DNA of 36,422 nt from a bacterium (GTDB lineage Bacteria; Sysuimicrobiota; Sysuimicrobiia; Sysuimicrobiales; Humicultoraceae). A program made the translations under genes and the position numbers. Positions 12,494-27,729 of the stretch are shown here, piece by piece (within the stretch, counting starts at the first letter, position 1; the number at the start of each line of letters is the position of its first letter). Where the stretch lies: NCBI GenBank assembly GCA_050694895.1, contig JBOGSE010000219.1, forward strand, positions 1-36,422, written 5' to 3'. The notes below the pieces were generated by a model, which was not told where the DNA came from, made no database searches, and worked only from the letters and a program-made list of their open reading frames with translations.

Positions 12494-13026
12494 GGAGGAT
12501 CGGACGACGCCAGCGTGCGCGCGGTGACCTGACGGCTGACCGCCACGAGTTCTCCGTCTTGATCAACGTACGTCCGCTCCTCCGTGATGAAAACGGCGGG
12601 GCCCTCTGCCGTGCCCCTGGCGGTGATGTCGAGTATCTTGAACCGAACCGTAAGCCGGTCGCCGATGCGAATCGGCCTCATCCACTCGATGTCCGTCCCC
12701 GCATTGAGGCGGGCGACCTCGCGCGTCACGGTAATCGTGCCCGCCAGTCCCGCCAGCGAGGGAAACGCCCTCTCGCCGCTCTCGTCGACGCTATCGTGAC
12801 TCGGGGCGGGACGCACGACATCCAAGATCATCGCCGGCGGCGCGAGGGTACCGACGCGTCCGGCGTTATCGGCGAAATCGGCCGCCCCCCACAGCGGGTT
12901 GCAATCTCCCGTCGCGTTCATGTAGCGTCTGACATCGCTCCATTCGATGGCGCCAGGGGTCTCTACGGGTTCGCTCTCGCGCCCAATCCACGCGCGGAGC
13001 TCCGCGGGGAGTTCCATCTCGACCAC
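12490..13026 (-). CDS. MaoC N-terminal-type hot-dog protein (probable partner subunit of 10865..11296)
   Basis: 178 aa. YMNATGDCNPLWGAADFA is a near-complete hydratase-2 motif with Asp kept and His replaced by Trp. Hot-dog strands IRIGDRLTVRFKILDI...FITEERTYVDQDGELVAV. ATGA overlap with the downstream CoA-transferase. Confidence 0.7.
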   Translation of the reverse strand: MVEMELPAELRAWIGRESEPVETPGAIEWSDVRRYMNATGDCNPLWGAADFADNAGRVGTLAPPAMILDVVRPAPSHDSVDESGERAFPSLAGLAGTITVTREVARLNAGTDIEWMRPIRIGDRLTVRFKILDITARGTAEGPAVFITEERTYVDQDGELVAVSRQVTARTLASSDPP

Positions 13027-13033
13027 CTCGTCG

Positions 13034-14242
13034 CTACGCGAGCACGCCTTCGTCGTGCAGCCGGGCGAGCTCCGCGTCGCTCATCCCCAGCAGATCGTGG
13101 AGGACCTCGCGCGTGTGTTCGCCGAGCCGCGGGCCGGCACGGTCGACACGGGCGCCGGCGGCGTCAAATCGAATCGGCGCAGGGAATACCGGCATCTCGC
13201 CGATCACCGGATGGTGGACAGACCGCCGTCCGGGGGAGAATCGCGGGAGGTCGTCGAGGACCTCACCGGTAGTGCGGACCGCGGTCGCTGGAATCCCCGC
13301 CCGCTGGAGCGTTTCCTCCGCCTGACGGGCGGGCCGACGCCGAGTCCAGGCCTCGATGCTGCGGTCGATCTCTTCGGCGTGCGCCAGCCGGGCCTGAAGC
13401 GAATCGAAGCGGGGATCCGAGAGAACATCATCACCTAAGAGGCCTACAAGTGACCGCCACTCGGCGGCGTCTCCCACGCTCAACACGCACCAGGCGTCCT
13501 CGCCATCGCATCGGTAACACCCTTGCGGCGCGCGCGTCATCGACCGATTGCCCGCGCGCCCCACCGCCCGCCCGGCGCGCTGAGATGCCATCACCAGATG
13601 CCCAAGCGGCAGCACATTCGCCTCATACTGGCTCAGGTCAATCCAGCACCCCTGCCCATGCACCTCGCGCCGGCACAGCGCCGCCGCGACGACGAGGGCC
13701 CCGTGGAGACCGGCGACAAAATCGGCCCAGGAGTTCGACACGGCGACGGGAGGATCACCGGGGCTGCCGGTTGTGAGCATCAGGCCCGAGAGGGCCTGAA
13801 TGATGATGTTGAAGCTCACCCAATCCGCGTGCGGGCCGTGAGCGCCCAACCCGGACATGCTCACATAGATCAGTCGCCGGTTGCGCTCCAGCACCCGGTC
13901 CGGGCCCAGGCCCAGTCGCTCCATGACCCCAACGCTGAAGTTCTCGGTCAGCACGTCGCTGCGCTCCGCAAGCGCCAGCGCGATCTCGATACCTTCAGGA
14001 TGCTTGAGGTTGATGGCCACGGAGCGCTTGTTGCGATTCAGGCTCGCGAAGATGGCGCTTCCCTCGAGGTCCTGGGGGCCACCCGGCCGAAACGGGCCCA
14101 GCCGGCGCGCCTGATCCGGCGCCATGCCGCTTTCCACCTTTACGACGTCCGCGCCCAAGTCTGCCAGAAGACTCGTCGCAAAGGGCCCCGTCACGACGTG
14201 ACCAAAGTCGAGAATGCGCACCCCAGAAAGTGGAAGGCTCAT
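13034..14242 (-). CDS. Family III CoA-transferase (catalytic Asp present)
   Basis: 402 aa. MSLPLSGVRILDFGHVVTGPFATSLLADLGADVVKVES and the active-site region VSNSWADFVAGLHGALVVAAAL (D...G.H, as in Frc-type enzymes). Confidence 0.9.
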   Translation of the reverse strand: MSLPLSGVRILDFGHVVTGPFATSLLADLGADVVKVESGMAPDQARRLGPFRPGGPQDLEGSAIFASLNRNKRSVAINLKHPEGIEIALALAERSDVLTENFSVGVMERLGLGPDRVLERNRRLIYVSMSGLGAHGPHADWVSFNIIIQALSGLMLTTGSPGDPPVAVSNSWADFVAGLHGALVVAAALCRREVHGQGCWIDLSQYEANVLPLGHLVMASQRAGRAVGRAGNRSMTRAPQGCYRCDGEDAWCVLSVGDAAEWRSLVGLLGDDVLSDPRFDSLQARLAHAEEIDRSIEAWTRRRPARQAEETLQRAGIPATAVRTTGEVLDDLPRFSPGRRSVHHPVIGEMPVFPAPIRFDAAGARVDRAGPRLGEHTREVLHDLLGMSDAELARLHDEGVLA

Positions 14243-14279: not shown

Positions 14280-15158
14280 CTACAGATACAGGGTGCCCAC
14301 CCGCACCGAGCCCACCAGCCGTCCCATCTGTCCAGCTGCTACCCGGAGCCAGACTCCCTGCCGCTCACCGATGAAGAAATCCCCCACATGGAGAAGGAGC
14401 CAGGCGTACTGGCGCGCCGCCCGTCCGAGGTTTCGGGGCATCCCGTATCGCCGAAACTTCTTAAAGAGTATGGGATGTACAATGCCATAACGAAAATGCT
14501 GACGCCAGACCTCCTCCAACCGCTCGCGCCGGCGTTTCAGTACAATAGCAGCGGGCTCGACATGCAGGTCGAATCCCGCGAGCTGCACTCTCCAGCAAAA
14601 GTCCACATCCTCGGTCGGCAATTTCTCATCAAACCCCGCAACACGCTCCAACGCCGTCCGGGAGACGCTCAGGTTCGCCGTAAGGCCATAGGGTAGAAAC
14701 GCGAAGAAATCGTGCCCGCTCTTCTCTCTCCCCCCGCTGCCTGTCACGTGGCCCTTCGTGGAGGGGGACGCTTTCTCTGGATGCATGACTCCCAAGAACT
14801 GAATCTCGCCCGCCACGAGATGATGACGTTCGAGCGCGGCCGCCATCGCACCAAGCCAGCCCGGTTGCACGACGTCGTCCTGATCGCAGAAGAGGAATGC
14901 ATCCCCCGCCGCCACCGTAGCCGCGATGTTGTAGGCGGCGCCGGGGCCGCGACGGGCTGAGGCATCGATCACACGGAGATGAGGCATCTTGTCTTTGAAG
15001 GCGCGAGCGATCTCAAGTGTACGATCGCTGGAGCCGTTGTCCGCCACGATCAGTTCCCAGGAGCCGTCGTATGTCTGTCCGGCGAGCGCCTCGAGCTGCT
15101 CGCCGATCGTCTCTTCCCCATTCCAGGTGGCTACGATGACGGACAGGGTGCGGCCCAT
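14280..15158 (-). CDS. Glycosyltransferase family 2
   Basis: The ORF extends to 15494 over the 3' end of the upstream aminotransferase gene. ATG at 15158 gives MGRTLSVIVATWNGEETIGEQLEALAGQTYDGSWELIVADNGSSDRT, and the DxD-type motif FCDQDDV follows. Confidence 0.85.
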   Translation of the reverse strand: MGRTLSVIVATWNGEETIGEQLEALAGQTYDGSWELIVADNGSSDRTLEIARAFKDKMPHLRVIDASARRGPGAAYNIAATVAAGDAFLFCDQDDVVQPGWLGAMAAALERHHLVAGEIQFLGVMHPEKASPSTKGHVTGSGGREKSGHDFFAFLPYGLTANLSVSRTALERVAGFDEKLPTEDVDFCWRVQLAGFDLHVEPAAIVLKRRRERLEEVWRQHFRYGIVHPILFKKFRRYGMPRNLGRAARQYAWLLLHVGDFFIGERQGVWLRVAAGQMGRLVGSVRVGTLYL

Positions 15159-15178
15159 CGCGCTGTCAGGGTTCTGGC

Positions 15179-16327
15179 TCAATGGCCCACCGGCAGCCCC
15201 GGCCCCTGGCCGGCATGGGCCGCGGAGGAAAACGCCAATACGACCTCGACCACTCGCGCGACCTGAGAGTCTGTCAGATGCGGACCTAGCGGGAGGCTCA
15301 GGGCCTGGGTGTGGATCTCCTCGGCGATCGGGAAGCCTCCGGCGGGCACCTCGAGCCATCGGTAGGCCTCTTGCAGGTGCGGCGGGATCGGGTAATGGAC
15401 CAAGGCCTGGGTGCCGCACTTCGCCAGGTGCTCGCGCAAGGCATCCCGGCGTTGGCTTCGCACCACAAACAGATGCCAACACGGCTCCGCCCATTCCGGG
15501 ACGAAGGGCAAGACAATCCCCGCGGTCCGTAGGTCCTCCAAGTAGGTTGCGGCGACGCGCCGGCGCCGGGCATTCCAGATATCAAGCCAACGCAACTTGA
15601 CGCGCAAAATAGCCGCCTGCATCTCATCCAAGCGGCTGTTGTATCCACAGACCTCGCTGACGTACTTCCGCGACGATCCATAGTTGCGAAGGAGGGCGAC
15701 GCGATGCGCAAGATGCGCATCGTTCGTGGTGACCGCGCCGGCGTCGCCAAAGGCCCCGAGGTTTTTGGTCGGATAGAAGCTCCACCCTGCGGCGTGTCCC
15801 AGGGCGCCGGCCCGGCGGGCGTGGTAGCGGGCTCCGTGTGCCTGCGCGGCGTCCTCAAGCACCCAGAGGTCGTGACGTCGGGCGATGTCCATAATCGGAT
15901 CCATGTCCGCTGACTGCCCATAGAGATGCACTGGGACAATCGCTTTCGTTCGCGGCGTGATCGCGTCTTCCAGCCGCTCGGGATCAAGGTTATAGGTCCG
16001 AGAATCCGGTTCTACCGGCACGATACCCGCGCCCGTCTGGCTGACCGCCAGCCACGTCGCGATGTACGTGTTGCTCGGGACGACCACCTCGTCGCCCGCG
16101 CCAACCCCCATGGCGCAAAGGGACAGATGCAGCGCCTCTAAGCCGTTGCCCACCGCGACGCAGTATTGAGTTCCGACATAGGCGGCGAACTCTCGCTCGA
16201 ACGCCTCCACCTCTTGACCGAGGATGTACCACCCGCTCGCGAGCACCCGGGCCACGGCTTCGTCGATCTCGGCCTTGAGCTCCCGATAGGTGACCCCGAC
16301 ATCGAGAAAGGGAACGTTACTGTCCAT
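15179..16327 (-). CDS. DegT-family dTDP-3-keto-6-deoxyhexose 3-aminotransferase (FdtB/QdtB-like)
   Basis: The start is placed at the internal Met ([37 protein letters not shown]), which matches the usual N-terminus of this family. PLP-lysine region [16 protein letters not shown]. It lies directly downstream of an FdtA-like isomerase gene. Confidence 0.85.
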
Positions 16328-16733
16328 GTTGCTTGGCCGCCTCAAGGAACGCCTCGTAGTCACGGTGATAGTCGGATTCGTCATAGAGGTCGCTGGCAAG
16401 CACCATATACACCGTCCCCTGCTCGAAATCGCCTTCGGCAGCCCATATCATCGGGGGGATGTACAACCCAAGCCAGGGCCGGTCGAGCCTGATCCCCCGC
16501 CTCTGATGACCATCATCCAGGGCCACCTCCAGGCCCCCAGCCAAACAGACGATGACCTGTTGAAGCGTCTTGTGAGCATGGGCTCCCCGAGTTCCTCCGC
16601 GGGGAACGTCATAGACGTAGAAGACCCTGCGAATCTGAAACGGAACGTGTCGAGTCTCTTCAACAAATGTGAGACTTCCCCGCGAGTCGAAGACCTTAGG
16701 GAATTCAAGAAGACGGCATCGCTCGAGCCCCAT
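16317..16733 (-). CDS. WxcM/FdtA/QdtA-like cupin: dTDP-4-keto-6-deoxyglucose 3,4-ketoisomerase
   Basis: 138 aa from the internal Met: [26 protein letters not shown]...[19 protein letters not shown]...[15 protein letters not shown]. The HAHK histidine pair and overall length match FdtA-type isomerases. An alternative start is at 16790. Confidence 0.8.
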
Positions 16734-16796
16734 GACGTGCCCTTTACCAGGACCAGCTCGCCGGCGCCCACGCGGCGTGGGCGTGCACATAGCGTC

Positions 16797-17816
16797 TCAC
16801 GAACCTCTCAGCGCCCCTTCATACCACGCCGCGTAGTACCGCAGGTACTCCCCCGACTTGACCGCCTCCCACCAGGCGCGATGACGTTGATACCACTCAA
16901 CGGTCCTGGCCAACCCTTCTGCGAGTGAAATTTTCGGCGTCCATCCCAGCGCCTGCCTCGCCCTGCCTGCATCGAGCGCATACCGCCGGTCGTGGGCCGG
17001 GCGATCGCGTGTGAACTGCAAGAGACTCGGAGAAGCGCCCACAAGCCTGAGAATCGTCTCCGCCACGGCGATGTTAGGCAGCACGCCTCCAGCGGCGAGA
17101 TTGTAGACGCCCTCCAGTCGTGCGCAGTCCACCGCGGCCAGAAGCGCGGCGCAGTGGTCCTCGACGAACAACCAGTCCCGTTCCTGGCGGCCGTCGCCGT
17201 AGACGGGAATGGGCTTGCGCTCCATGGCGTTGGTGATCGCCAGCGGGATGAGCTTTTCTGGGAACTGGAACGGGCCATAGTTGTTTGTGCACCGGGTAAT
17301 GACGACCGGCACACCATGGGTCTTGGCGTATGCCTGGCACAGCAGGTCGGCGGCGGCTTTACTTGCCGCGTAGGGACTCGTTGGATGAAGGGGCGCGTCC
17401 TCGGCAAACGCTACGGCCGGCGGGGTCGGCCCATACACCTCATCGGTGCTCACCTGAATGAACCGTTGCACCCCGAACTGCAGCGCCGCATCCAGCAGGA
17501 CCCGCACACCTCCGACGTTGGTGTGGATGAACGGGCCAGCGTCCATGATGCTGCGGTCGACGTGAGACTCTGCGGCGAAATTCGCGACGACGTCGACGCC
17601 ATCTCGAAACACGCCGTGCACCGTCGGTGGATCCCCGATGTCACCCTTCACAAACCTAAAGTGGGGGTGCGTGGCCACGTCGCGAAGGTTTTCGAGGTTG
17701 CCGGCATAGGTCAGCTTGTCCAACACCGTAACCTGCCACTCTGGCCGGCATCGCACTACATGTCGGGCAAAGTGACTCCCGATGAATCCCGACCCGCCCG
17801 TAATGAGAATCTTCAT
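16797..17816 (-). CDS. rfbB: dTDP-glucose 4,6-dehydratase (RmlB/RfbB)
   Basis: 339 aa. MKILITGGSGFIGSHF, SPYAASKAAADLL (Y-x3-K), and a C-terminal region typical of RmlB. Confidence 0.95.
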   Translation of the reverse strand: MKILITGGSGFIGSHFARHVVRCRPEWQVTVLDKLTYAGNLENLRDVATHPHFRFVKGDIGDPPTVHGVFRDGVDVVANFAAESHVDRSIMDAGPFIHTNVGGVRVLLDAALQFGVQRFIQVSTDEVYGPTPPAVAFAEDAPLHPTSPYAASKAAADLLCQAYAKTHGVPVVITRCTNNYGPFQFPEKLIPLAITNAMERKPIPVYGDGRQERDWLFVEDHCAALLAAVDCARLEGVYNLAAGGVLPNIAVAETILRLVGASPSLLQFTRDRPAHDRRYALDAGRARQALGWTPKISLAEGLARTVEWYQRHRAWWEAVKSGEYLRYYAAWYEGALRGS

Positions 17817-18274
17817 CGGTGGCTGAGGCTCCAGTCGTAGGGGACACCGGGGTCGTCGTGAGGGAGCCGATACTCGTCCGGTGCTAGATAGTCATAGATC
17901 CGGGTGGGGATGTTGACGAGGATCGCCTCGCGCGGCCCCTCAGCCGCGACGCCGTGGTACACGAGCGGTGGAACGATGACCAACAGTGGATTGAGGACAC
18001 CGGTATGAAACTCGTTGATGACGCCCTTCGTGGGACTCTCATTCCGGGGATCGTACAGCACGATTCTTGCCATGCCTCGGATGCAGACGAAGTAGTCCCA
18101 CTGATCCCTGTGATAGTGCCAGGCTTTGATCACCCCGGGATAGCACGCTGTCAGATAGACCTGCCCAAAGGCGCGGAACTCCGGCCAGTCGCTCCGCAGC
18201 ATTTCCATGAGAAATCCGCGATCGTCGGGCAGGACCTTCAACGACCTGACGGTCACACCGTTGATCAGGTTCAC
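17813..18274 (-). CDS. Short (SpsL-type) dTDP-4-dehydrorhamnose 3,5-epimerase-like cupin
   Basis: 153 aa. LKVLPDDRGFLMEMLRSDW...PGVIKAWHYHRDQWDYFVCIRGMARIVLYD...VPPLVYHG. RmlC-family cupin of the short form. ATGA overlap with rfbB. Confidence 0.75.
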   Translation of the reverse strand: MNLINGVTVRSLKVLPDDRGFLMEMLRSDWPEFRAFGQVYLTACYPGVIKAWHYHRDQWDYFVCIRGMARIVLYDPRNESPTKGVINEFHTGVLNPLLVIVPPLVYHGVAAEGPREAILVNIPTRIYDYLAPDEYRLPHDDPGVPYDWSLSHR

Positions 18275-18286
18275 CGCACTCTCCCG

Positions 18287-19354
18287 CTAGATTGTGATTT
18301 CTGAATGGTCGCTGATGAACACTCGCAGGGCCTTCGGGCCATTCTCTGCCCGCCGGATGGTCACGAAGCGTCCCAGCACGCTGTCTTCCAACCGATCGAT
18401 GCCTACAAGCTGGCAGTGTGCCAGGACGACGGAGTGCTGCACCGCCACTTGCGCCACCACCGTATCGTGGCCGATCGCGGTATACGGCCCCACGAATGCA
18501 TCACGGATCTGGCACCGTTCGCCGACAACTACCGGGCCGCGAATGACGCTGCGCTCGACGGTGGTGCCTGGACCGATCTCCACCCGGCCCGTGACGACCG
18601 AGGCCTCGTCCACCGTGCCCTGGATCTTCCGTGTCGCAATCTCATCCAGAACGGCTCGGTTGGCCTCCAGCAGATCATCCTTCTTCCCCGTATCAAGCCA
18701 CCAGCCGTCGAGTTTGACCGTTTCCACCTTGGCTCCACTACTGGACAGTTCCTGAATGGCGTCGGTGATCTCTAGCTCACCCCGTCGCGATGGACGGATT
18801 CGGTCGATGGCCGCGTGAACGCTCGGCCGGAAGAAGTACACTCCCACTAGCGCGAGGTTGCTCGGCGGATGCTGTGGCTTTTCGATCAGGGCGGTCATCC
18901 TCCCGTCGGCATCCACGACGGCCACGCCGAACTGGCGCGGGTCGGCGACCTCCTTCAGGAGGATAAGGGCTTCGGCATCGCTTTCCAGGAACCGGCTGTG
19001 GAGGTGCTGCACCCCGCCCTGAATCAGGTTATCCCCCAGAAACATCAGGAACGGACTGTCCCCAAGGAATGGGCGGGCCGTACGGACCGCGTGCGCTAGT
19101 CCGCCGGGCACGTCCTGTGGAATGTAACTGATCTTCACACCCCATTGCTCGCCGTTGCCCACGGAGTTGCGGATGGCTTCCCCCGTCTCCGGATCAATGA
19201 TGATGCCGACATCTCGGATACCGGCCTGCGCGACCTGGTCCAGGACAAAATGCACGATGGGTCGGTTGGCCACCGGAATCAGCTGCTTGGCGCCCGTGTG
19301 GGTCAGCGGCCTCAGCCGCGTGCCCCGTCCCCCGCACAGCACCAGGCCCTTCAT
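18287..19354 (-). CDS. rmlA: Glucose-1-phosphate thymidylyltransferase, long form with a C-terminal left-handed beta-helix
   Basis: The start is placed at [33 protein letters not shown] (355 aa). The alternative ATG is at 19381. The ORF-track extension to 19546 (GTG) is Arg-rich and unlikely to be coding. Confidence 0.85.
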
Positions 19355-19398
19355 CTGGTTCCCGTTGGTCAGATCCGTCATGTTCCTACACGACCGAC

Positions 19399-20301
19399 TT
19401 ATTCCGTCTGGGGCGGAGCCTCTAATGCCGTACGGGAGCCTTTGCCCGCTCCTCCTTCGGATCTGCCCTCGGTAACCGCCTCGCGTTTGACGTATACGTA
19501 CCACTCGGTCTGGACCAGTGGGAGCCGCGCGACGAGGCGATCCCACAGGCGCTCATGCGGCAGGATAAAAGGGCTCGTGGGTGTGTTATTGAAGTTGTTC
19601 GTGCAATAGAGACGGCCCCCTGACTTCAGGACTGCGACCAGCCTGGGCAGGAGAGCTTCCAACTCCGTCGCGGCAAGGCTGCCGAAGACATCGAAGGCAA
19701 CAACGCAATCGAACTGCTCACCCCTGGGTATGTCAGAGATGAAGCGGATCGGGATGTTCCTCCGTCGAGCTCGCCACTCGGCTACCTTCCAGACGGGCGA
19801 ATCGGCGATATCGCAGTACCAGACCTCGTTTCCTTGGGCTGCCAGCTGCAGAGCCTCGGTCCCGATGCCTCCCCCGAAGGAGAGAACGGTACCATCCCGC
19901 TCGTCATTCAGGAGGGCAAGGTACCCATGGTAGGTAGGCGTCATATGCCAGCGGGCCAGGTCGTAGACGTACTCCGAGCAGTGCCGGTGGAACTCGTATA
20001 TCTGCTCCGGGGTCTGCGGGTTTTCTCGTCGCCAGCGCGCCGCTACCAGTTCGTGACCCCTGGCGAGGTTCAGTGCAACCTCGGACCGTGGCAATCCCAG
20101 GTATGCCTCCAGCTCCTCCAGCACCGAAGGACGTCCAGATATCATGCGCTCGTGTGCCGCTCGGTCCATGACCCGCGCCACCCTTAGCGGCTCCCTGTTT
20201 CCCCTCAGGAGGTACACGGCAGTCGCCACGGGATGCCTGAGGGCGAACCGTGCTCTTTGCAAAATCCTCATCATCCGCGCACCAGAGAGCGGAAGGCTCA
20301 T
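19399..20301 (-). CDS. Class I SAM-dependent methyltransferase
   Basis: 300 aa. Motif [14 protein letters not shown], acidic post-I residue in VWYCDIAD, and [17 protein letters not shown] overlap with the upstream DUF35 gene. The start could instead be Met10/11. Confidence 0.75.
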
Positions 20302-20666
20302 GCCGGCTCAAACAGCGGAAGCGTGTACTCCTTGGTGATGCGCCGCAGCACGACGCGAACCGGCATCCCGATCCGCACCGCCTCAGGGGGACAGTGCACA
20401 ATGTTGCTGACCATCACGGGACCTTCGTCGAGCTCGATGATGGCATAGACGTACGGCACGGAGAACGCCGGGTCGTGCGGTACCCGTTGAATCGTGTAGG
20501 TCAGAACTTTTCCTTGGCCGCTGGCACGGACCCACTTGAGATCTTGCAGATACGGCTTGTTCGCATGCTCGCGGCATCCCGCCAGCGGCCATCGCCAGCC
20601 GAGACACTGCTCGCACCGCAACAGTAAGAATTCTCCCCGCGCCAACCCCTCCCAGAACGGCACCAT
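20298..20666 (-). CDS. DUF35 protein (rubredoxin-like Zn ribbon plus OB fold; partner of thiolase-fold enzymes)
   Basis: 122 aa. FWEGLARGEFLLLRCEQCLGWRWPLAGCREH (Cys-x2-Cys...Cys-x2-His), then the OB-fold part GKVLTYTIQRV...YVYAIIELDEGPVMVSNIV...IGMPVRVV. It lies immediately downstream of a thiolase-fold gene, the canonical pairing. Confidence 0.7.
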   Translation of the reverse strand: MVPFWEGLARGEFLLLRCEQCLGWRWPLAGCREHANKPYLQDLKWVRASGQGKVLTYTIQRVPHDPAFSVPYVYAIIELDEGPVMVSNIVHCPPEAVRIGMPVRVVLRRITKEYTLPLFEPA

Positions 20667-20700
20667 CTCTTCGGTCGGGTTGGGGACGGGACCTGGCCAG

Positions 20701-21903
20701 TCAGTGATACGGGTGGCTCCTCAGGACGACGGTGGAGTGGATCGAGCACATCTGCCCCGACAGGACCTCTGCACCGTGACCGGACACCACGGCGACCTCC
20801 GCCCCCTCCACCTGTCGGCTCTTCCCCTCGCCGCGCAGCTGCGTCACGGCCTCGGCGAGGCCCGTCAAATTGCCGAGATGATGCGAGGAGAGCAGGCCCC
20901 CGCCGGTGTTGGTGGGGATCTGACCCCCGGGGGCGGTCCGCATCTCTGCCACGAACGCGCCGCCCTCGCCCTTCTCACACCAGCCGTAGTCCTCCACCTG
21001 GATCACGACCTCCCCGGTGAAGCAATCGTAGAGCTGCGCCACATCGATATCCGACAGCTGAACGCCGGCCTGCCTGAACGCATTGTCTCGCGCCGACCGC
21101 ACCGCCAGCGTGGTGTAATTTGATTTCTTCCACCAGAGATCGCTCATCTGCTCGCCGAACCCAATACCTGCGACATGGACCGGTGGCTTCCGTAAGTCTC
21201 GCGCGCGGTCCGCTGTCGTCACCACAAAGGCCACTCCGCCGTCACTCTGCAGGCAGATGTCAAAGAGACGATATGGCCACACGACCACCGGAGAGTTCTG
21301 GTGATCTTCTAATGTCAGGGACTTGCGATGCATGTACGCCGAGGGGTTGAGGTTCGCCCAGCGGCGCTGGGCAACGGCGACCGCGCCCAACTGGGCGCTC
21401 GTCGTCCCGTATTCATACATATGACGACTGGCGAGCAGTCCATGATACGTGACGGCGTTCCCTCCGAACAGTTGCGCCATCATATTCGTCTTGGGCGCAA
21501 ACGCCTGGCCGGCTCTCCCAGACGCGGCCTTAGCGGTCTGGCTGCGGCTCCAGTCGTCTCGTGCCCCGGCGCAGAGAACGTATTCGGCGACCCCATGTTC
21601 TAAGAGACTGCTTGCGATGATCAGGGCGTGGGCAACATACTCCCCGCCACGCCCGACATTCTCCATGTACACGTTGACCGGCAGGTTCAACACGCGCGCA
21701 AACGAGTCATGGTGCCTCGCGCGGACGCCGCCCCCCGTATCGCTGAGCAGCTGGATAGCCGCGCCGATGCGCTCGGCCTCGAGCCGGGCGTCCTGGAGGG
21801 CCAGCCGCGCCGCCTCAACCTCAAGCATCAGGACCGAACGGCCGGGGAGGTGGCCCACCTCTGTGACGCCGAGGCCGACGATGGCGCAGGTATCGCTCCT
21901 CAC
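20701..21903 (-). CDS. SCP2/Ltp-type thiolase-fold protein lacking the nucleophilic cysteine (candidate aldolase/condensing subunit)
   Basis: The ORF extends to 22260 across the upstream gene. I place the start at GTG 21903..21901, which is preceded by GGAGG with 8-nt spacing (seen in sequence). Family landmarks are AIVGLG, DICLQSDGGVAFVV, LYDCFTGEV and NTGGGLLSSHHLGNLTGLAEAVTQLRGE. The acyl-Cys position reads NVGRGGEY. Confidence 0.75.
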   Translation of the reverse strand: MRSDTCAIVGLGVTEVGHLPGRSVLMLEVEAARLALQDARLEAERIGAAIQLLSDTGGGVRARHHDSFARVLNLPVNVYMENVGRGGEYVAHALIIASSLLEHGVAEYVLCAGARDDWSRSQTAKAASGRAGQAFAPKTNMMAQLFGGNAVTYHGLLASRHMYEYGTTSAQLGAVAVAQRRWANLNPSAYMHRKSLTLEDHQNSPVVVWPYRLFDICLQSDGGVAFVVTTADRARDLRKPPVHVAGIGFGEQMSDLWWKKSNYTTLAVRSARDNAFRQAGVQLSDIDVAQLYDCFTGEVVIQVEDYGWCEKGEGGAFVAEMRTAPGGQIPTNTGGGLLSSHHLGNLTGLAEAVTQLRGEGKSRQVEGAEVAVVSGHGAEVLSGQMCSIHSTVVLRSHPYH

Positions 21904-21922
21904 CCGTCGCGCCTCCGCCCGC

Positions 21923-22891
21923 TCACTCTCTGAGGAAGGAGTCCGGCGGCATCGGCCCCCAGAGGTTCGCCGAGGCCGGCCGGCCCTTGACAGGGTCCCA
22001 CCGACCTGGTCGATACGTCGACTCGTCTTCGATCCGGTTCGGCTCGCCCAAGACCTCCCAACGGATCCCCCAGGGGTCGAGAAAATATACGAACAAGCCG
22101 TGACTGGGCCCATGCCGCCCCGGTCCAAACTCGATGCGGATGTCGTTGGCCACGAAATGGTCCCCGAGACGGCGGATCTCGTCCCACGACGCGATCTCAA
22201 ACGCGATGTGATGCACCCCGGGAGTCGTGGACCGGACGATGGCCACCGTGGCATGGTCACAGTTGCAGCGCAGCCAATAGAACGTCTCGCTGATCTGATC
22301 AGAAAGCCGAAAGTCCATGATGTCCTGCCACCACCGCGATGCCCGCGCCGGCTCCGGACTCTTCACATTGATATGCGCGAGCTTCACGAGGTCGAAGGGC
22401 ACGCGGCCGGCGGGACGGGGCACAGGCGGCAGGGGAACGGTGAGCTCCACGGCAAAGCCATCCGGGTCACGCAGGCGGACCGCCGGACCGTGCATGCGCT
22501 CGAAGTCCTGGGGACCTTGGATATCCAGCCCCCGTGACCGCAGGAGCGCAACCGCGCGAACAAGCGCTGCATCATCGACCACTGCCAGGCCGACGTGGTC
22601 GACTCCCGCCGGTTCTCCTGGAGACACGATGACTTCGTGATGGGCAACCGTCGCAGCCCCCCGGGGCAGGCTGCTGAGCCGGATGGCCCCACTGACCCCG
22701 TCCCGCCCCGTTTCCCCGAGTCCCAGGGCCCGCCGGTAGAAGGAGGCCGCGGCCTCCGGGTCGGGCACCCGAAGGCTCACGTGATCAAGATGCGTGACCG
22801 GGAGCAGTCCGCTCACCAGCGCGTGTCCCTCACCCTCCCCCGATGGCCGAGGGACCACGTTGATCACAGCACCGGTTTCGTCACGAGCCAT
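21923..22891 (-). CDS. Two-domain type I extradiol ring-cleavage dioxygenase (catechol 2,3-dioxygenase-like, VOC superfamily)
   Basis: 322 aa from ATG 22891..22889 (TGATG junction with the upstream stop). C-terminal domain: LAHINV, CDHATVAI, VHHIAFE and GPGRHGPSHGLFVYFLDPWGIRWEV. The last fits the extradiol signature as I recall it (G-x-H-x7-V-Y-x2-D-P-x-G-x3-E). Confidence 0.8.
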   Translation of the reverse strand: MARDETGAVINVVPRPSGEGEGHALVSGLLPVTHLDHVSLRVPDPEAAASFYRRALGLGETGRDGVSGAIRLSSLPRGAATVAHHEVIVSPGEPAGVDHVGLAVVDDAALVRAVALLRSRGLDIQGPQDFERMHGPAVRLRDPDGFAVELTVPLPPVPRPAGRVPFDLVKLAHINVKSPEPARASRWWQDIMDFRLSDQISETFYWLRCNCDHATVAIVRSTTPGVHHIAFEIASWDEIRRLGDHFVANDIRIEFGPGRHGPSHGLFVYFLDPWGIRWEVLGEPNRIEDESTYRPGRWDPVKGRPASANLWGPMPPDSFLRE

Positions 22892-24519
22892 CACGGTTCG
22901 CGCGCGACCTTTGCGGCCCTTCCCGAATCGAAGGCCAGTGTGTGAAATGGCAGCAGCTTGCCATGAGCCGTCGGAACGGGGTCCCGACGAATGACCTTGA
23001 TCGTCTGTGCCAGCCGCCACATGGGCGGTATCGTGGTGCGTGGCTGTATCTGTAACCTCAGTTCCTCGACAAACCTCGCCAGAACGCGCTCCTCGTCGAC
23101 CGGTCCCACAGCGGGGCTGACGACAAGGCACAACCTCGTCAGGTGCTCCTCATCCTCCATCTCGAGCAGCTGATAATCGAGGCTCCGGCCCCCGAATTCA
23201 CGGGGGAGCACTTCCTCGATGACCCGCACGCTGTCGGTCCCGAGCACGGTCACTCCCTCGCCGGTGAGCTTGGAGAAGCTCATGATGCCCGAGAGGTGCG
23301 TGTGCAACCCGAGGGTATCCCAGACACATTCACATCGGCGAACGGTGATGTCACCGAAGTCATCACTCTCGACGTTGAGCATGATTTTCGGGCTGGAAGG
23401 GAGCAGGGTCGTCAGGATCAAGGCATCCACAGCTCTGCCATCCGGCAAGGGACGCTTCTCGGACAGGAGCGCAAAACTGTCTGCCTGGAAATGCATATCA
23501 TCCACTGCCGTCGCCTGCCCGCATGCACACCCCACCGCGCCAGCTTCCGTGATGGAATATCGTGCCCCCACGCGCGCGCCCACGCGGACGATGTCCGCGG
23601 ACTTCCCCGGCGTCAGTGGCTCCCCACCGACGAGGAAGGCAACCCGTTCTAGATCGACTCCCCGGTGAGCGGCAAGCCCGGCCAGCCGGGTGGCGGTACT
23701 CGGACTCGTCAACGCCGCACACCCGCCGTATCGCGCGCGGGCCTCCAGGACGGCATCCAGTACGACGTCGGCATCGGCGAACGACGCGTGCTCAGGATAG
23801 GCCACGCGCACTCCGCGCGCCATGCCGATGATCTGTCCGACGCGAAACATCACGCGGTGCCGACGCGACACCGATTCTGGTGATGGCTTCGTGATGGAGA
23901 ACCAGCGCAGCAATGGTCGTCCCATATGGGCCAGCGCGAGCCACCACATCAGGCCGCCACCATGACTGACGGCAGGCATCCAGATGATGGCGGGCCATGA
24001 ACCGGCCCCCAGCGCCTCAAGGGCCAGGTACCACGCCGGCGCTCGCTGGTCGGCGACGTAGTCGAACGACGCTGGCACCCGCGACCCCCGGCTCCGTGTG
24101 CCGCCTGTTCGCGCGACAAACGATGGCACGGTCCTCGGGTTGTCCAGATCGCCCTCGGTACACTCGAACCGAAGACCATCGCGCTGAATGGGTCTCTGCC
24201 CCTTGAACTCCTCGTGGCTGAGGTAGACGCCCGTGGCCCGCAGCGCCTCGAGCGCCGACTCCAGCCCACGGCGTCGCACGGCATCAACCAAGGCGTCATA
24301 TGACCACCCTGCCCACTGCAACAGCCGGAGATATGGGCTCGCGGGATTCTGCCAGATCGTCTCCCGGGCCGTTCGCAAAAATAGCTCGTCCCGGACCGCC
24401 AGTCGATCGCGGATCTGCGCCTTGGCCTGCTCAAGCGTGAGGGGCCGGAAAATGTGCCGGACCAGCCCTCGGGCCACACGCACATGCGCGCCGAGATCGG
24501 CCGGGGCCGGAAGGCTCAT
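22891..24519 (-). CDS. PaaK/CapK-like adenylate-forming enzyme, copy 2 of 2
   Basis: 542 aa, collinear with 9243..10868. TGGTRSRGSRV, GEPLTPG, YSITEAGAVGCAC, DDMHFQAD, LTTLLPSSPKIMLNVESDDFGD, FSKLTGEGVTVLG, and the C-terminal HGKLLPF. Confidence 0.7.
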   Translation of the reverse strand: MSLPAPADLGAHVRVARGLVRHIFRPLTLEQAKAQIRDRLAVRDELFLRTARETIWQNPASPYLRLLQWAGWSYDALVDAVRRRGLESALEALRATGVYLSHEEFKGQRPIQRDGLRFECTEGDLDNPRTVPSFVARTGGTRSRGSRVPASFDYVADQRAPAWYLALEALGAGSWPAIIWMPAVSHGGGLMWWLALAHMGRPLLRWFSITKPSPESVSRRHRVMFRVGQIIGMARGVRVAYPEHASFADADVVLDAVLEARARYGGCAALTSPSTATRLAGLAAHRGVDLERVAFLVGGEPLTPGKSADIVRVGARVGARYSITEAGAVGCACGQATAVDDMHFQADSFALLSEKRPLPDGRAVDALILTTLLPSSPKIMLNVESDDFGDITVRRCECVWDTLGLHTHLSGIMSFSKLTGEGVTVLGTDSVRVIEEVLPREFGGRSLDYQLLEMEDEEHLTRLCLVVSPAVGPVDEERVLARFVEELRLQIQPRTTIPPMWRLAQTIKVIRRDPVPTAHGKLLPFHTLAFDSGRAAKVAREP

Positions 24520-25382
24520 GCGGTATCTCCGTCGAGCCGGTCGTACCCGAAGCCGTCGCGCGCGGTCAACAAACGCAGTCGCGCCCTGAAGAGCCAGAAC
24601 CCGTCACTCTGAATCACGGGGTACCGCCACATCCTGGAGAGATCGAGCGCACGGTAGGGGTTCTTGGCGGGCCCCCCAAGTGCGACCGTGTCATACCGTG
24701 AAGCCACCAGGGCGTGCGTCGCAGGCGCCCACCGTCCCCACGGGTACGCGAAATGCTTTGGGCGAAATCCCAGCCGCGCCTCGATGAGCCGATCGCACTC
24801 ATCCAGCTCGCGCCTCGCCTCTTCCAGGGATAACCGGGACAGGTCGGCGTGCGTATGCGTGTGCGCCCCGATGGTCATCAGTCCCGAGCCGCCCATCTCG
24901 GCAAGCTGATCCCAGGTCAGGGGCCGGGGTCTTTCCGCCGGGTCCATGGCGCGGTAGGCGCCAAAATCGAAGGGCCGTCGCGCCTCGAGATACATGGCAG
25001 GAACATAGATCGTTGCGGGGAGGCTATAGCGGTGGAGAATCGGATACGCCAGATGGTATGTCCCCTGGTGGCCGTCATCAAAGGTGATGGCCACGACATC
25101 CCGCTGCGCCGGCGGCCCGGACCCGTTCATGGAGATCCTGACCACGTCGTCGAGGGATACGACCCGAACGTGCCGACGGAGATAGTCCATCTGGCGCTCG
25201 AAGAGTCCGACGGCGACATCGATCTCGCTGCGGGTGCTGCCGCCGACGCGATGATAGAGGAGCACCACCACTCCGGGTCTCTGCTCGCGGCGCAGGGCAT
25301 GATATGGAAGCGCCCCCCACCGGAACAGGCTACGAGCAAGCCGGGCCTCACCTTTCAACCAGTCGCGAACGCGGTGCGTCAC
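24516..25382 (-). CDS. Polysaccharide deacetylase (CE4 / NodB homology domain)
   Basis: NodB motifs ITFDDGHQGTY and GAHTHTHADL. The ORF extends to 25586 over the upstream gene; GTG 25382..25380 gives a GTGA overlap with the upstream stop. The start position is only moderately certain. Confidence 0.8.
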   Translation of the reverse strand: MTHRVRDWLKGEARLARSLFRWGALPYHALRREQRPGVVVLLYHRVGGSTRSEIDVAVGLFERQMDYLRRHVRVVSLDDVVRISMNGSGPPAQRDVVAITFDDGHQGTYHLAYPILHRYSLPATIYVPAMYLEARRPFDFGAYRAMDPAERPRPLTWDQLAEMGGSGLMTIGAHTHTHADLSRLSLEEARRELDECDRLIEARLGFRPKHFAYPWGRWAPATHALVASRYDTVALGGPAKNPYRALDLSRMWRYPVIQSDGFWLFRARLRLLTARDGFGYDRLDGDTA

Positions 25383-26698
25383 GCCCGGGGTCCGGACCTC
25401 GCCGGCAGATAGGCCAGCCACATGAGTATGAAGGGGAGCAACTGCGCCCGTTGCCGCGCGATGATCGCGAAATTCGAAATAGCGGAAAAGAAGAACGCAA
25501 AGAGCAAGACGTAGGTGACCGACATCAAGAGGAAGGTATCGCGTCGCGCGCCGACGATTGCGGCAATCACGCTCCGCCGACGCCACGCGACTAGCGCGAC
25601 CAGCAACACACCCTCGGCCGCAGAGATTTGCGCGAACAGGTTACCTGCCTCCCACGGGTATGGGCGAAAGAAGACTGTCGCAATCCCGTCGGCAAGCGCC
25701 ACCGGGTTGTTGGGCATCCCCCGCTGGATTATCGACCTGCCGCGCGCGGTGGTCTCCTGACGCGCTTCGATGTAGCTCAAGACGCCCTCCCCCGAAAGCT
25801 CCTCGAGCTGGATAAAGTCCGCGGATGTTTGCACCACGACAAAAGCCAGGACGGCGACGATCGCGGTCGCCATCCCCTTGACTACCGGCGTCATCAAGCC
25901 GGCGCGGATTGGCCGCAGTAAATATCCGGTCGCCAGAGCCACGCCGGCCATCGCCGCGACGTGCGGCCGGATGAAGAGGACTCCCGCCAGGCCGCCGGCG
26001 GCCATCAGCCAGCCTCTGAAATCAGGGCGCCGCATGACGATCGCCGCGCCATAGGTCATCAGGCCGAGAGAGAAGCAGACCAGTGCATCTTTCCCCAAAC
26101 TGCTGGTCCAGAGCAGCATCGAAGGATAGAGCAAGATCAGCAACGCGTACAGCCGGCGATTGCCGCCGGGAAACGCGACGGTGAACGCTTTGTAGAAGAA
26201 CAGCATCCCCATCAGTCCCAGCCACGCCCAGAATACAAATGCACCAACAAGGGTTGGGCCGACAAATGCGTAATAAATCCCGGTCAACAGCTGGACCAGC
26301 TGCGTGCTATAGTACTTGTCCATCTGGGGCAGACCGCTCCTCAGGATCGCATCGGCCAGGCGCTCACCCGATTCGTGGTACTGCAAGGCATCGGCAACCC
26401 CGCCGTACTGGACGAGGACGAACCAGAGGCGAAAGACCACGGCTCCGAACTTGAGGATGAGACTCGCCACCAGCACACGAAACAGCCACGCACCATGCGG
26501 ATCGTCGCGAATGGCCAGGCGAAAGATGACGAGGGTGACGAGGGTGACGATGGCGATGACGCCAGCGGCACGAACCCCCTCAGCATCCTGGGCGGCCACG
26601 GCGATGCCAACGACGGCGGCCATCGTCACGAAGAGGAGCGCCGTACCTAGAACCCACGGAGAGTCTGACCGCGTCCGCACGACGCGATGACCGATCAT
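25379..26698 (-). CDS. Polytopic integral membrane protein, unassigned (Wzy / O-antigen-ligase-like or GT-C-like)
   Basis: About 439 aa from ATG 26698..26696 (TGATG junction). Many long hydrophobic segments throughout, with a larger polar loop near ...ADFIQLEELSGEGVLSYIEARQETTARGRSIIQRG.... No soluble-enzyme motif recognised. Confidence 0.6.
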   Translation of the reverse strand: MIGHRVVRTRSDSPWVLGTALLFVTMAAVVGIAVAAQDAEGVRAAGVIAIVTLVTLVIFRLAIRDDPHGAWLFRVLVASLILKFGAVVFRLWFVLVQYGGVADALQYHESGERLADAILRSGLPQMDKYYSTQLVQLLTGIYYAFVGPTLVGAFVFWAWLGLMGMLFFYKAFTVAFPGGNRRLYALLILLYPSMLLWTSSLGKDALVCFSLGLMTYGAAIVMRRPDFRGWLMAAGGLAGVLFIRPHVAAMAGVALATGYLLRPIRAGLMTPVVKGMATAIVAVLAFVVVQTSADFIQLEELSGEGVLSYIEARQETTARGRSIIQRGMPNNPVALADGIATVFFRPYPWEAGNLFAQISAAEGVLLVALVAWRRRSVIAAIVGARRDTFLLMSVTYVLLFAFFFSAISNFAIIARQRAQLLPFILMWLAYLPARSGPRA

Positions 26699-27729
26699 CA
26701 AAACACCTCCAGATCTCCCAAAGAGAGTCGCCAGCTTGCCGGCGAGCACGGGTCGCGCGCGACGTCCGCCGGTCGCAGCGGACGGACCGTAAAGTGTGGT
26801 CCCCGTCGCGGGATGGGGACAAAGCCCAGGGCCAGGAGCACGCGCCGGTGGGGGGTCGCCCAGCTGCAGTGCGCCACCGCATAGTCGGCGTCCACGGTGC
26901 GCAGGAGCTCGTGCAGCGCGCGGCGGCCTGCCGCAGGGTCGCCGATGAATAATTCCGTGATAGCCAGCTCCCCCAGGCCGCGGCGGCGTGTGAGGCGGCA
27001 GATCACTGCAGCCTTTAGCCCGCCGTCGCTAACCCAGTGAGCCCCGTAACGCAGCGATGGAGCCATCGCGTACCGCCAGCGCAGAAAGGCGACCGACCGC
27101 GCCGTTCGAATACCGGAGGCCAGGCTGGTGTCGTCGCGCACAATCAGCTCGGCCAGGGGGTTCTCCAGCCGCAGCAGCTCGTCGACGGGTCGGGCGACAC
27201 TCACTCCTGTCATGCTTCCGTCAGAACCGCCGTCGGCCTGTGCCCCCCGGGGCGTCAGGAAGGTCTGGCCGATGCGCAATGGTCTCAGCGGACGGACCAT
27301 CACGGTCGTCCGCCCCACATGGGCCCAGCCCAGCTTCAGATACCCTGGAAGGCTGAACCGGTTCGGCGTATTGAACACGAGGTCCATGCCCGCGGCGTGC
27401 GCGCGCTCGAGGCATGCCGCCGTAAGCCGAGAGAAGATCCCCATGCGCTGATAGCCGGGGTGGGTGGCGGTGTCCACGGCGCGAACTGCGTGCATGGTCC
27501 GCCCGCCAGCGCGGAACTGCCACCGGAGGAATGCGCGAAGCCCGAGAATCTCCTGGCCGTCTGCGACCAGCAGCAGCGACGGCCCAAAGGGATTCTCCAG
27601 GTGTTTCCACCGGAAGAATCGCGTCGAACGCTCGAAGGTCCGGCCGGCGCCAAGCGCGCGATTCAGCAAGTCGAGTACCCGCGGCTCGTCAGCCACTCCG
27701 TACTCGCGGATGGTCACGGCCGAGGTCAC
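26698..27729 (-). CDS. GNAT-fold acyltransferase with a C-terminal extension (343 aa)
   Basis: IREYGVADEPRVLDLLNRAL..., and motif A region VDTATHPGYQRMGIFSRLTAACLERA. GTG start in a GTGA overlap with the upstream GT4 stop. Confidence 0.7.
   Translation of the reverse strand: MTSAVTIREYGVADEPRVLDLLNRALGAGRTFERSTRFFRWKHLENPFGPSLLLVADGQEILGLRAFLRWQFRAGGRTMHAVRAVDTATHPGYQRMGIFSRLTAACLERAHAAGMDLVFNTPNRFSLPGYLKLGWAHVGRTTVMVRPLRPLRIGQTFLTPRGAQADGGSDGSMTGVSVARPVDELLRLENPLAELIVRDDTSLASGIRTARSVAFLRWRYAMAPSLRYGAHWVSDGGLKAAVICRLTRRRGLGELAITELFIGDPAAGRRALHELLRTVDADYAVAHCSWATPHRRVLLALGFVPIPRRGPHFTVRPLRPADVARDPCSPASWRLSLGDLEVF

Follow-up and report, generated by a model that had tools for sequence, protein, structure and literature searches.

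A thiolase-fold protein without the nucleophilic cysteine and its DUF35 partner: a putative redox-free aldolase cassette associated with aromatic ring cleavage in bacterial polysaccharide loci

DUF35 proteins act as scaffolds for thiolase-fold enzymes, as in the archaeal thiolase/HMG-CoA synthase complex and in BbsAB. To our knowledge, the only aldolases with a thiolase fold described to date come from the degradation of steroid side chains; the structure of one of them, Ltp2, was reportedly released in 2019 and that of another, Sal, in 2025. Hydroxycinnamates are cleaved by a coenzyme A (CoA)-dependent, non-beta-oxidative route that consists of CoA activation, hydration and retro-aldol cleavage. 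Here we analyze a gene pair of contig JBOGSE010000219.1 (assembly GCA_050694895.1); the window, that is, the whole stretch of DNA studied, covers 36,422 nucleotides (nt). The pair encodes a thiolase-fold protein of 400 amino acids (aa) that lacks the nucleophilic cysteine, and a DUF35 protein. We put at roughly 70% the probability that the first protein is a carbon-carbon lyase belonging to a redox-free cassette of CoA activation, hydration and retro-aldol cleavage, acting on a substrate derived from an aromatic acid. A preliminary description of the DNA had favored an aldolase working after a two-subunit MaoC hydratase over a thiolase, and this function is now made probable by five independent lines: sequence matches in the PDB, the ranking of structures, the catalytic residues of Sal from Comamonas testosteroni (CtSal), the adjacency of the MaoC genes, and the absence of dehydrogenases beside the pair.

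Every real gene of the window is on the minus strand. The open reading frame that encloses the aldolase gene is longer (20701..22260), and within it a GTG start is found at 21903 with GGAGG eight bases ahead; public gene calls give an identical 400-aa product. Pfam recognizes in it the thiolase C-terminal domain PF22691 (Thiolase_C_1, 1.6e-40) and does not detect Thiolase_N. The motifs quoted in the preliminary description, DICLQSDGGVAFVV, LYDCFTGEV, NTGGGLLSSHHLGNLTGLAEAVTQLRGE, ENVGRGGEYVAHAL and GVAEYVLCAGA, were all located in this protein. Its AlphaFold2 model has a mean predicted local distance difference test score (pLDDT) of 88.8 and a predicted TM-score (pTM) of 0.92, and it superimposes on thiolase-fold structures with TM-scores of 0.74-0.89 (Foldseek). 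The model and the PF22691 match place the protein in the SCP2/DUF35-associated branch of the thiolase superfamily, with the two-domain thiolase fold. At the C-terminal end, residues 380-400 include a family-conserved tail behind the GHGGE loop, GQMCSIHST, whose C386 and H389 are invariant; this tail extends beyond the end of the alignments to five PDB chains, and pLDDT is low at 381-384.

If the protein is a thiolase by fold, then we can ask: What stands at the place of the thiolase nucleophile? To fix the register, 39 homologues were combined into a profile that HMMER aligned to solved structures, and family members were aligned with five PDB chains in MAFFT. The nucleophile elbow reads V83-G-R-G-G-E88 and contains no Cys in any register, so the missing cysteine, initially read from the letters alone, stands in alignment with thiolases and Ltp2. 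The nucleophilic Cys of the Pyrococcus thiolase (7yvy) aligns to V83 and that of the zebrafish SCP2-thiolase (6hsj) to G87. By both methods Gly89 of CtSal, which the Sal authors give as the position of the thiolase Cys (PMC12329534), also aligns to G87, and the helix after the elbow begins at residue 89 of the model, which is consistent with this register. No choice of register can supply an elbow cysteine, because cysteines occur only at positions 6, 111, 217, 294, 309 and 386, with none between residues 7 and 110. Thus, of the residues typical for catalytic thiolases (EC 2.3.1.9, 2.3.1.16 and 2.3.1.176), the elbow Cys is absent; the GHP-loop His and the acid/base Cys of the CxG or HDCF loop are represented by H342 and C294.

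Conservation was evaluated in 117 homologues with 54-100% identity to the window aldolase. In the elbow, R85-G86-G87 are invariant and G84 is kept in 111 sequences. The HDCF-type loop does read YDCF, with Tyr and not His as its first residue, and Y292-D-C294-F is invariant, as are E298, N332-T333, G335-G336, T347, E351, G375-H376-G377 and E379. More than 50 positions are invariant, C294 and C386 among them, and the classical thiolase His (H342) is found in 114 sequences and Tyr in 3. Particular to this family are R85 in the elbow, E298, and the G-H-G-G-E loop with H376 and E379. Since Gly391 of Sal corresponds to residue 378, H376 would be placed where classical thiolases have their second catalytic Cys. 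In this alignment, such conservation means that the loss of the cysteine was not a one-off event and that the family has a working active site unlike that of a thiolase.

The residues substituting for the usual acid and base can be proposed from CtSal, where Tyr302 and Cys304 of the YDCY loop are catalytic and mutation of either abolishes activity (PMC12329534). They correspond to the invariant Y292 and C294, which are the candidate pair here, and the Gly at the position of the thiolase Cys is likewise shared with Sal. The Sal residues Gln347 and Gln352, which support the Cys thiolate, align to Leu337 and His342. In Ltp2 the acid/base pair is formed by Tyr294 (of YDHF) and Tyr344, and the protein has the first of them as Y292. 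Because Tyr344 of Ltp2 is His342 here, the predicted catalytic pattern is the dyad of the Sal/SLP type and not the Tyr/Tyr pair of Ltp2, though Ltp2 is closer overall.

That the protein is still a thiolase or another Claisen-type enzyme, with C294 or C386 as the acyl acceptor, is very improbable in our view. It is true that both cysteines are invariant and that His342 is canonical. However, the elbow that should position the nucleophile carries Gly and Arg, the equivalent Cys in CtSal is the general acid of an enzyme without thiolase activity (PMC12329534), and no examined locus offers the acyl-CoA dehydrogenase that beta-oxidation would require as well, or a recognizable 3-hydroxyacyl-CoA dehydrogenase that could give a 3-oxoacyl-CoA. 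An archaeal-type thiolase/HMG-CoA synthase/DUF35 complex was rejected on account of the absent Cys and of the Pfam scans of the window, which contain no HMG-CoA synthase. Acyltransferases of the PhlABC/MucABC type were also rejected, as these keep the Cys and need HMG-CoA synthase or PhlA partners absent here.

We give just as little credence to a decarboxylase of malonyl-type CoA esters or to a catalytically dead scaffold for partner proteins. According to the Sal paper, TbSLP, which also has YDCF, decarboxylates malonyl-CoA very slowly, and this is the sole activity measured for it (PMC12329534). A carboxylate might also be bound by the invariant R85. Against this, the TbSLP activity is near background and later authors propose an aldolase, and a dead scaffold fits poorly with more than 50 invariant positions that include an active-site constellation.

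The aldolase reading agrees with the nearest structures. The best PDB sequence matches are 4u4e, then Ltp2 (TcLtp2, 2e-54, or 1.6e-79 with the family profile) and CtSal, real thiolases coming after them, and for the N-terminal 135 aa Ltp2 is the sole match in the whole PDB. Foldseek ranks 4u4e, Ltp2, Sal and TbSLP first for the model, followed at lower ranks by SCP2-thiolase, the Pyrococcus thiolase, BbsB and the archaeal thiolase. Identity to the window protein is 38.7% for 4u4e, 33.3% for Ltp2, 29.4% for Sal, and 28.6 and 28.2% for two thiolases. In a rough neighbor-joining tree the family forms its own clade, separate from that of Sal; Ltp2 is next, then Sal with 4u4e, and the thiolases lie outside. 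We found 224 relatives among the GTDB species representatives, in Chloroflexota, Binatia, Alpha- and Deltaproteobacteria, Actinomycetota and Armatimonadota; proteins of this kind are at present annotated throughout as 'acetyl-CoA acetyltransferase'. A plasmid collection searched with the aldolase gave only matches of at most 41% identity, to other thiolase-like subfamilies. By sequence, the window protein is a member of a large, widespread, non-steroid and uncharacterized subfamily of putative thiolase-fold aldolases, which we consider new.

The partner gene begins 34 nt past the stop of the aldolase gene, as initially described. Its zinc ribbon carries C18-x2-C21-x9-C31-x2-H34 (CxxC-x9-CxxH), that is, a C3H1 pattern, which is present in most of 84 aligned partners; at the fourth position a minority has either Cys, as in L005, L017, L018 and L043 (related loci are numbered with L throughout), or another residue. 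The Sal paper described a Cys3His1 finger as unique to CtShy, the DUF35 protein of CtSal (PMC12329534), and the motif suggests that the window partner has such a finger too. Among about 130 loci for which the downstream sequence is available, nearly all have the DUF35 gene after that of the aldolase; in L027 and L073 it lies upstream. For Ltp2, the DUF35 domain comes from the hydratase subunit ChsH2 and the genes lie in a steroid side-chain cluster, while here it is encoded separately among sugar, CoA-transferase and dioxygenase genes. Of the Ltp2/ChsH2-like arrangement originally proposed, the cysteine-less thiolase fold with a DUF35 partner therefore stands; an active site of the Ltp2 type and a hydratase-fused DUF35 do not, given His342 and the free-standing 122-aa protein.

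Table 1. Features of the window considered in the text, with their coordinates.
Feature	Length (aa)	Coordinates	Strand	Basis or remark
Thiolase-fold protein without nucleophile Cys, putative beta-hydroxyacyl-CoA (retro)aldolase	400	20701..21903	-	Pfam, PDB matches, AlphaFold2, conservation
DUF35 partner, OB fold with N-terminal zinc ribbon	122	20298..20666	-	PF01796 OB_ChsH2_C, 3e-23
Family III CoA-transferase subunit 1 (CoAT_1)	402	13034..14242	-	PF02515, 1e-106
FAS1_DH_region-type hot-dog subunit	178	12490..13026	-	Pfam, PF13452
Family III CoA-transferase subunit 2	397	11300..12493	-	PF02515, 6e-66
MaoC-type hot-dog subunit	143	10865..11296	-	PF01575
Type I extradiol (catechol-cleaving) dioxygenase, VOC superfamily		21923..22891	-	Two PF00903 domains
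PaaK-like adenylate-forming enzyme A, upstream flank	542	22891..24519	-	AlphaFold2, Foldseek
PaaK-like adenylate-forming enzyme B	541	9243..10868	-	64% identical to A
dTDP-3-amino-3,6-dideoxyhexose-type insert		14280..20301	-	Pfam, NCBIfam
Polysaccharide deacetylase		24516..25586	-	Pfam
Protein without Pfam or NCBIfam match	456	25379..26749	-	73% identity in L002/L003, between GNAT and deacetylase
Eis-like GNAT		26698..27729	-	Pfam

It is instructive to compare the gene order around the pair across related loci. In L002 and L003 (86% identity) the dioxygenase, aldolase, DUF35, first CoA-transferase, PF13452 hot-dog protein, second CoA-transferase and MaoC genes follow each other with no intervening genes. 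The same contiguous seven-gene block was detected in L011 (Armatimonadota), L012, L013 (Ca. Fervidifonticultor), L015, L090/91, L092, L096 and L097, and the CoAT_1 gene lies directly 3′ of DUF35 in L002/3, L011-13, L015, L090, L092, L096 and L097. In the window the MaoC pair is 7 kb away from the aldolase pair because an inserted sugar cassette separates DUF35 from CoAT_1, whereas in about a dozen related loci the two pairs adjoin. The hydratase plus aldolase set in a glycan locus, as first described, thus holds; the description was incomplete, since the two CoA-transferases, the upstream dioxygenase and the split seven-gene unit did not figure in it. One metagenome-assembled genome (MAG), GCA_030157145.1, has three copies of the cassette, L003, L092 and L097, with aldolases 86%, 72% and 78% identical to that of the window; each lies in a different polysaccharide locus, which means either real paralogy or a strain-mixed bin.

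The best PDB match of CoAT_1 is a subunit of BbsEF (9fn0_B, 8e-71; the next match is at 7e-49), and the best NCBIfam match of the second subunit is succinyl-CoA:mesaconate CoA-transferase, far under the cut-off. A role of these proteins as alpha-methylacyl-CoA racemase was rejected, the similarity being much weaker than to BbsEF. The MaoC pair is confirmed by Pfam for both hot-dog genes, and the MaoC-type subunit gives weak PDB matches to MaoC/HadB/ChsH1. The PF13452 subunit has the motif GDCNPLW, where Asp is retained and His is replaced by Trp, and the hydratase-2 motif of the MaoC subunit is QENWLRIHYD, where His is retained and the canonical Asp is replaced by Asn. These half-motifs are complementary and largely conserved in the clade, the PF13452 subunit of L011 being degenerate (GGQSPVAP), and they raise the question of whether the hydratase active site is split across both subunits or whether this is a hydratase in the first place. 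In SAR202 Chloroflexi both are fused into one protein of 380 aa (L025) whose C-terminal half is of the MaoC type, and L095 encodes an 835-aa protein fusing two CoA-transferase domains. These gene fusions show that the hot-dog proteins are best taken as one predicted enzyme, and the CoA-transferases likewise.

The initial statement that the window has no acyl-CoA or 3-hydroxyacyl-CoA dehydrogenase was borne out by Pfam scans of all minus-strand genes, and no acyl-CoA dehydrogenase or recognizable 3-hydroxyacyl-CoA dehydrogenase was seen beside the pair in any locus examined. For this reason hydration followed by aldol cleavage is favored over thiolysis. Near distant relatives (clusters 4 and 7), genes of the short-chain dehydrogenase/reductase (SDR) family and genes like 3-hydroxyisobutyrate dehydrogenase recur without an assigned function, and the loci with SDR-type genes may include an oxidative step.

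The first gene of the cassette links it with aromatic compounds. The dioxygenase starts either with ATG at 22891, where TGATG overlaps the upstream PaaK-like gene, or with GTG at 22816, which gives 297 aa as in relatives. Its NCBIfam matches, TIGR03211 (2e-40) and HpaD (1e-35), are both under the equivalog cut-offs, and in the PDB it matches catechol 2,3-dioxygenase 3hpv (9e-22). The protein has the two VOC modules, the His/His/Glu metal triad and the second-sphere His and Tyr of type I extradiol enzymes; all 10 clade members compared have kept the metal ligands and the acid-base His and Tyr. A methylmalonyl-CoA epimerase or glyoxalase role of this VOC protein was rejected in view of the full-length match and the extradiol catalytic residues. 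That a polysaccharide operon contains the gene for a complete catechol ring-cleaving dioxygenase is also a side observation in its own right.

Directly upstream of the cassette dioxygenase, L092 (5768..8796) and L010 (5393..8335) have genes for Rieske alpha and beta subunits and an SDR. HcaE is the nearest match of the alpha subunit (8e-104, below cut-off), the beta subunit is above the cut-off of the HcaF subfamily model, and the SDR is above that of the phenylpropionate-dihydrodiol dehydrogenase model (HcaB-like); no ferredoxin or reductase gene was seen next to these Hca-type genes. In L092 they lie amid sugar genes, and in L010 (80% identity) among an ABC transporter, an NMT1-type binding protein, a thiamine pyrophosphate (TPP) enzyme and an isochorismatase-family gene. 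The SAR202 loci L025 and L035 have a 40%-identical Rieske pair after aldolase, DUF35 and two CoA-transferase genes, and in L005 the aldolase/DUF35 pair is surrounded by LigXa/VanA-type oxygenases and glutathione S-transferases (GSTs). Together, the Hca-type genes of relatives, the extradiol dioxygenase, the L005 oxygenases and the PaaK-like folds of the flanking proteins suggest a phenylpropanoid-like aromatic acid as the probable substrate. Distant members of the family adjoin a CoA-activating enzyme as well, either two CoA-transferases (L008 and others) or an AMP ligase (L093), and L095 combines the fused CoA-transferase with a crotonase-type enoyl-CoA hydratase beside the aldolase pair; TctA/TctC carboxylate transporters, Amidohydro_2 and Asp/Glu-racemase-family proteins are also found nearby. 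The trio of CoA activation, enoyl-CoA hydratase and aldolase/DUF35 therefore recurs in these distant contexts, again without an acyl-CoA dehydrogenase.

Could the cassette be an ordinary catabolic module for aromatic acids, for example for CoA-dependent, non-beta-oxidative cleavage of a cinnamate-type side chain together with meta cleavage of the ring, with its glycan location incidental? The transporter, TPP enzyme and HcaE/F/B-like genes around the L010 cassette, which has no sugar genes, the oxygenases and GSTs of L005, and the tie of the pair to Rieske oxygenases in SAR202 all point this way. We nevertheless hold this explanation to be improbable. At least nine independent loci of the clade are situated in sugar operons, with 4-nt overlaps at the boundaries in L090 and the window, and the surrounding sugar genes vary among loci while the cassette stays, which argues for selection and not for accident.

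These nine or more loci belong to a clade of 71-86% identity. The clade cassettes usually come after an Eis-like GNAT gene and a deacetylase gene and are followed by a GT4 gene, a PaaK-like gene, a second GNAT gene and PglC/PglE/PglF-like genes; the order GNAT, deacetylase, dioxygenase, aldolase is kept in L002/3, L011, L012, L015, L090 and L097. The export systems around them are Wzm/Wzt in the window, Wzx in L097 and, in L090 and the P0027 contig, Wza/Wzc accompanied by a NusG paralogue. Stop and start codons overlap in the window by 4 nt between DUF35 and the following methyltransferase gene, by 4 nt between MaoC and PaaK-like B, and by 1 nt between PaaK-like A and the dioxygenase. In L090 consecutive genes overlap by 4 nt, and this includes the cassette/sugar boundaries deacetylase/dioxygenase and MaoC/GT4. 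The operon setting and these overlaps with sugar genes at either end speak for a role of the cassette in the glycan, perhaps the supply of an acid or unusual acyl group to a de-N-acetylated or 4-amino sugar. A search of the literature for dioxygenase or CoA-transferase genes in Armatimonadota polysaccharide loci gave nothing relevant.

The two PaaK-like proteins have no Pfam or NCBIfam family match. The model of A (pLDDT 88.9) has PaaK1/PaaK2, phenylacetate-CoA ligases, as its top Foldseek matches (E 3e-15) and also matches other adenylate-forming or amide-bond-forming enzymes. The 146 homologues found are all annotated 'hypothetical' and come mostly from Armatimonadota-like MAGs; an invariant C-terminal G-K fits the catalytic Lys of ANL enzymes. 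On the strength of the model, A and B are members of an undescribed, predicted adenylating family that bookends the cassette. The insert between DUF35 and CoAT_1 encodes a methyltransferase, a long-form RmlA-like protein with a left-handed beta-helix (LbH) tail, a cupin, an RmlB-like protein, FdtA (3,4-ketoisomerase), a DegT aminotransferase and a GT2 glycosyltransferase. It splits the cassette in the window only and is absent from the collinear L002/L003. These genes point to a 3-amino-3,6-dideoxyhexose in the glycan of this strain, besides a bacillosamine-type sugar. Elsewhere in the window, a conserved reading frame at 2568..3242 on the minus strand (224 aa) has no Pfam or NCBIfam match, and the 870-aa product of 29999..32611, also on the minus strand, carries two complete GT4 modules in tandem, its L002/L003 homologue having 814 aa.

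From these data the following course of the reaction may be proposed. A BbsEF-like two-subunit family III CoA-transferase would turn a carboxylic acid into its thioester, water would be added to the 2-enoyl bond of the latter by the two-subunit MaoC hydratase, and the aldolase would split the hydrated product. By analogy with CtSal, Tyr292 would take the proton from the beta-hydroxyl of the 3-hydroxyacyl-CoA and Cys294 would protonate the acyl-CoA enolate that is formed, with the oxygens held by backbone atoms at the G84-G87 elbow and at residue 378. The products would be an aldehyde or ketone and a shorter acyl-CoA, and the reaction would be reversible. The free-standing DUF35 protein would bind the enzyme via its C3H1 zinc ribbon and OB fold and shape the substrate cleft. 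The extradiol dioxygenase would open the catechol ring of the same compound, before or after the other steps. In the lineage of the window the cassette probably supplies or remodels an unusual amino-sugar substituent, which is the weakest step of the proposal.

The aldolase could also run in the synthetic direction. It would then condense an aldehyde, perhaps the semialdehyde that the dioxygenase forms, with an acyl-CoA such as succinyl- or acetyl-CoA; MaoC would dehydrate the adduct and the BbsEF-like transferase would return the CoA, which amounts to a CoA-neutral chain extension to an unsaturated acid, and PaaK-like ligases or GNATs would put this acid on an amino sugar. The cassette is situated centrally in long polysaccharide operons that are translationally coupled and have three different export systems, and this speaks for synthesis, as do the deacetylase and GNAT genes directly upstream, the PaaK-like ligase and second GNAT genes directly downstream, and the aldehyde that arises from extradiol cleavage. 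The Bbs pathway, to which the closest structural relative of the transferase belongs, is reported to be reversible in vivo (PMC10818641). On the other side, the characterized relatives Ltp2 and Sal are catabolic, and the contexts of L010, SAR202, the lignin-type and the transporter-rich loci look catabolic. On balance we think synthesis rather unlikely, though less so than an incidental catabolic module.

Several points weigh against a redox-free aldolase cassette. Identity is only 33% to Ltp2 and 29% to Sal, and the glutamines supporting the dyad in Sal are changed to Leu337 and His342; the invariant R85, E298, H376 and E379 might reflect another chemistry; 4u4e, the closest structure, is a protein without an assigned function. 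Neither hot-dog subunit has a complete Asp/His hydratase-2 dyad, and hydratase activity is therefore not assured. The L010 cassette is without sugar genes within 9 kb, and the glycan link may not be universal. We also arrived at no convincing route in which the dioxygenase, CoA-transferase, hydratase and aldolase all act on one named compound; for the ring-fission products of 2,3-dihydroxyphenylpropionate or 2,3-dihydroxycinnamate, CoA-transfer, hydration and retro-aldol cleavage gave no compelling order of steps.

That this family recurs next to an enzyme for CoA activation and one for enoyl-CoA hydration suggests a general route without dehydrogenases by which carboxylic acids, probably aromatic, are shortened or extended, and the family offers new aldolase scaffolds for biocatalysis. 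Its link to ring cleavage and to surface-sugar operons is an unusual one. The presence of a route with a ring-cleaving dioxygenase in polysaccharide operons raises the question of whether surface sugars are decorated with products of ring cleavage. We tentatively suggest, as a possibility with the odds against it, that a mobile seven-gene cassette was recruited into surface-polysaccharide operons of Armatimonadota-like bacteria and turns an aromatic acid into a ring-fission or aldol-derived acid or acyl-CoA, which PaaK-like ligases or GNATs put on a de-N-acetylated or 4-amino sugar. If true, this would be a glycan substituent of a previously unseen kind, and a thiolase-fold aldolase would for the first time have a biosynthetic, non-steroid role. 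Our literature search for a DUF35/retro-aldol/CoA-transferase route outside steroids gave nothing relevant beyond the Sal paper.

How does the locus compare with the described systems? The bile-acid side-chain aldolase CtSal-CtShy (PDB 9myr, PMC12329534) shares with the window pair the thiolase fold, the Gly at the Cys position, the Tyr and Cys of the Y-D-C-[YF] loop and a DUF35 with a Cys3His1 finger, and it too follows a MaoC hydratase with no dehydrogenase step. However, the DUF35 of CtShy is the C-terminal domain of the hydratase, while it is separate here, and the context is steroid there and aromatic/glycan here. TcLtp2-ChsH2, the actinobacterial C3 steroid side-chain aldolase (PDB 6ok1), is the best functionally characterized match, at Foldseek rank 2. 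It has in common with the window protein the Tyr of YD(H/C)F, the need for a DUF35 partner and the place after a heteromeric MaoC hydratase. It differs in having YDHF instead of YDCF, Tyr344 instead of His, and a DUF35 fused to a hot-dog domain, and no steroid catabolic genes lie near the window pair. The putative thiolase of Sphaerobacter thermophilus from structural genomics, 4u4e, shows the highest similarity (39% identity, Foldseek E 2e-38) and has a Cys-less elbow, AVGGSS, and the Tyr in YDSF, but it lacks the Cys of YDCF and the R85/E298/H376/E379 set.

The BbsEF and BbsAB proteins of anaerobic toluene degradation (PDB 9fn0 and 7pxp) follow the same gene logic, a two-subunit family III CoA-transferase together with a thiolase-fold/DUF35 pair; this neighborhood is kept in the relatives of the window, where the transferase is of the BbsEF type. 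In contrast, BbsB is a true thiolase with the nucleophilic Cys, the Bbs pathway needs the dehydrogenases BbsG and BbsCD, for which neither the window nor the cassette loci have a counterpart, and the Bbs hydratase is a crotonase and not a MaoC protein. Literature searches on BbsEF and BbsAB gave no residue-level information on succinyl binding comparable with R85. By its genes, the cassette mirrors BbsEF together with BbsAB, but without the dehydrogenases and the Cys. The phenylpropionate-cinnamate pathway Hca/Mhp resembles L092 and L010, where HcaE/F/B-like genes would feed the dioxygenase; MhpB, however, is of the LigB type, while the extradiol enzyme here is of the VOC type, and there is no MhpC-like hydrolase here. 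The CoA-dependent cleavage of hydroxycinnamates with feruloyl-CoA hydratase/lyase (HCHL/Ech) has the reaction sequence that we propose for the cassette, but there one crotonase both hydrates and cleaves, whereas here these tasks would be divided between hot-dog and thiolase-fold proteins.

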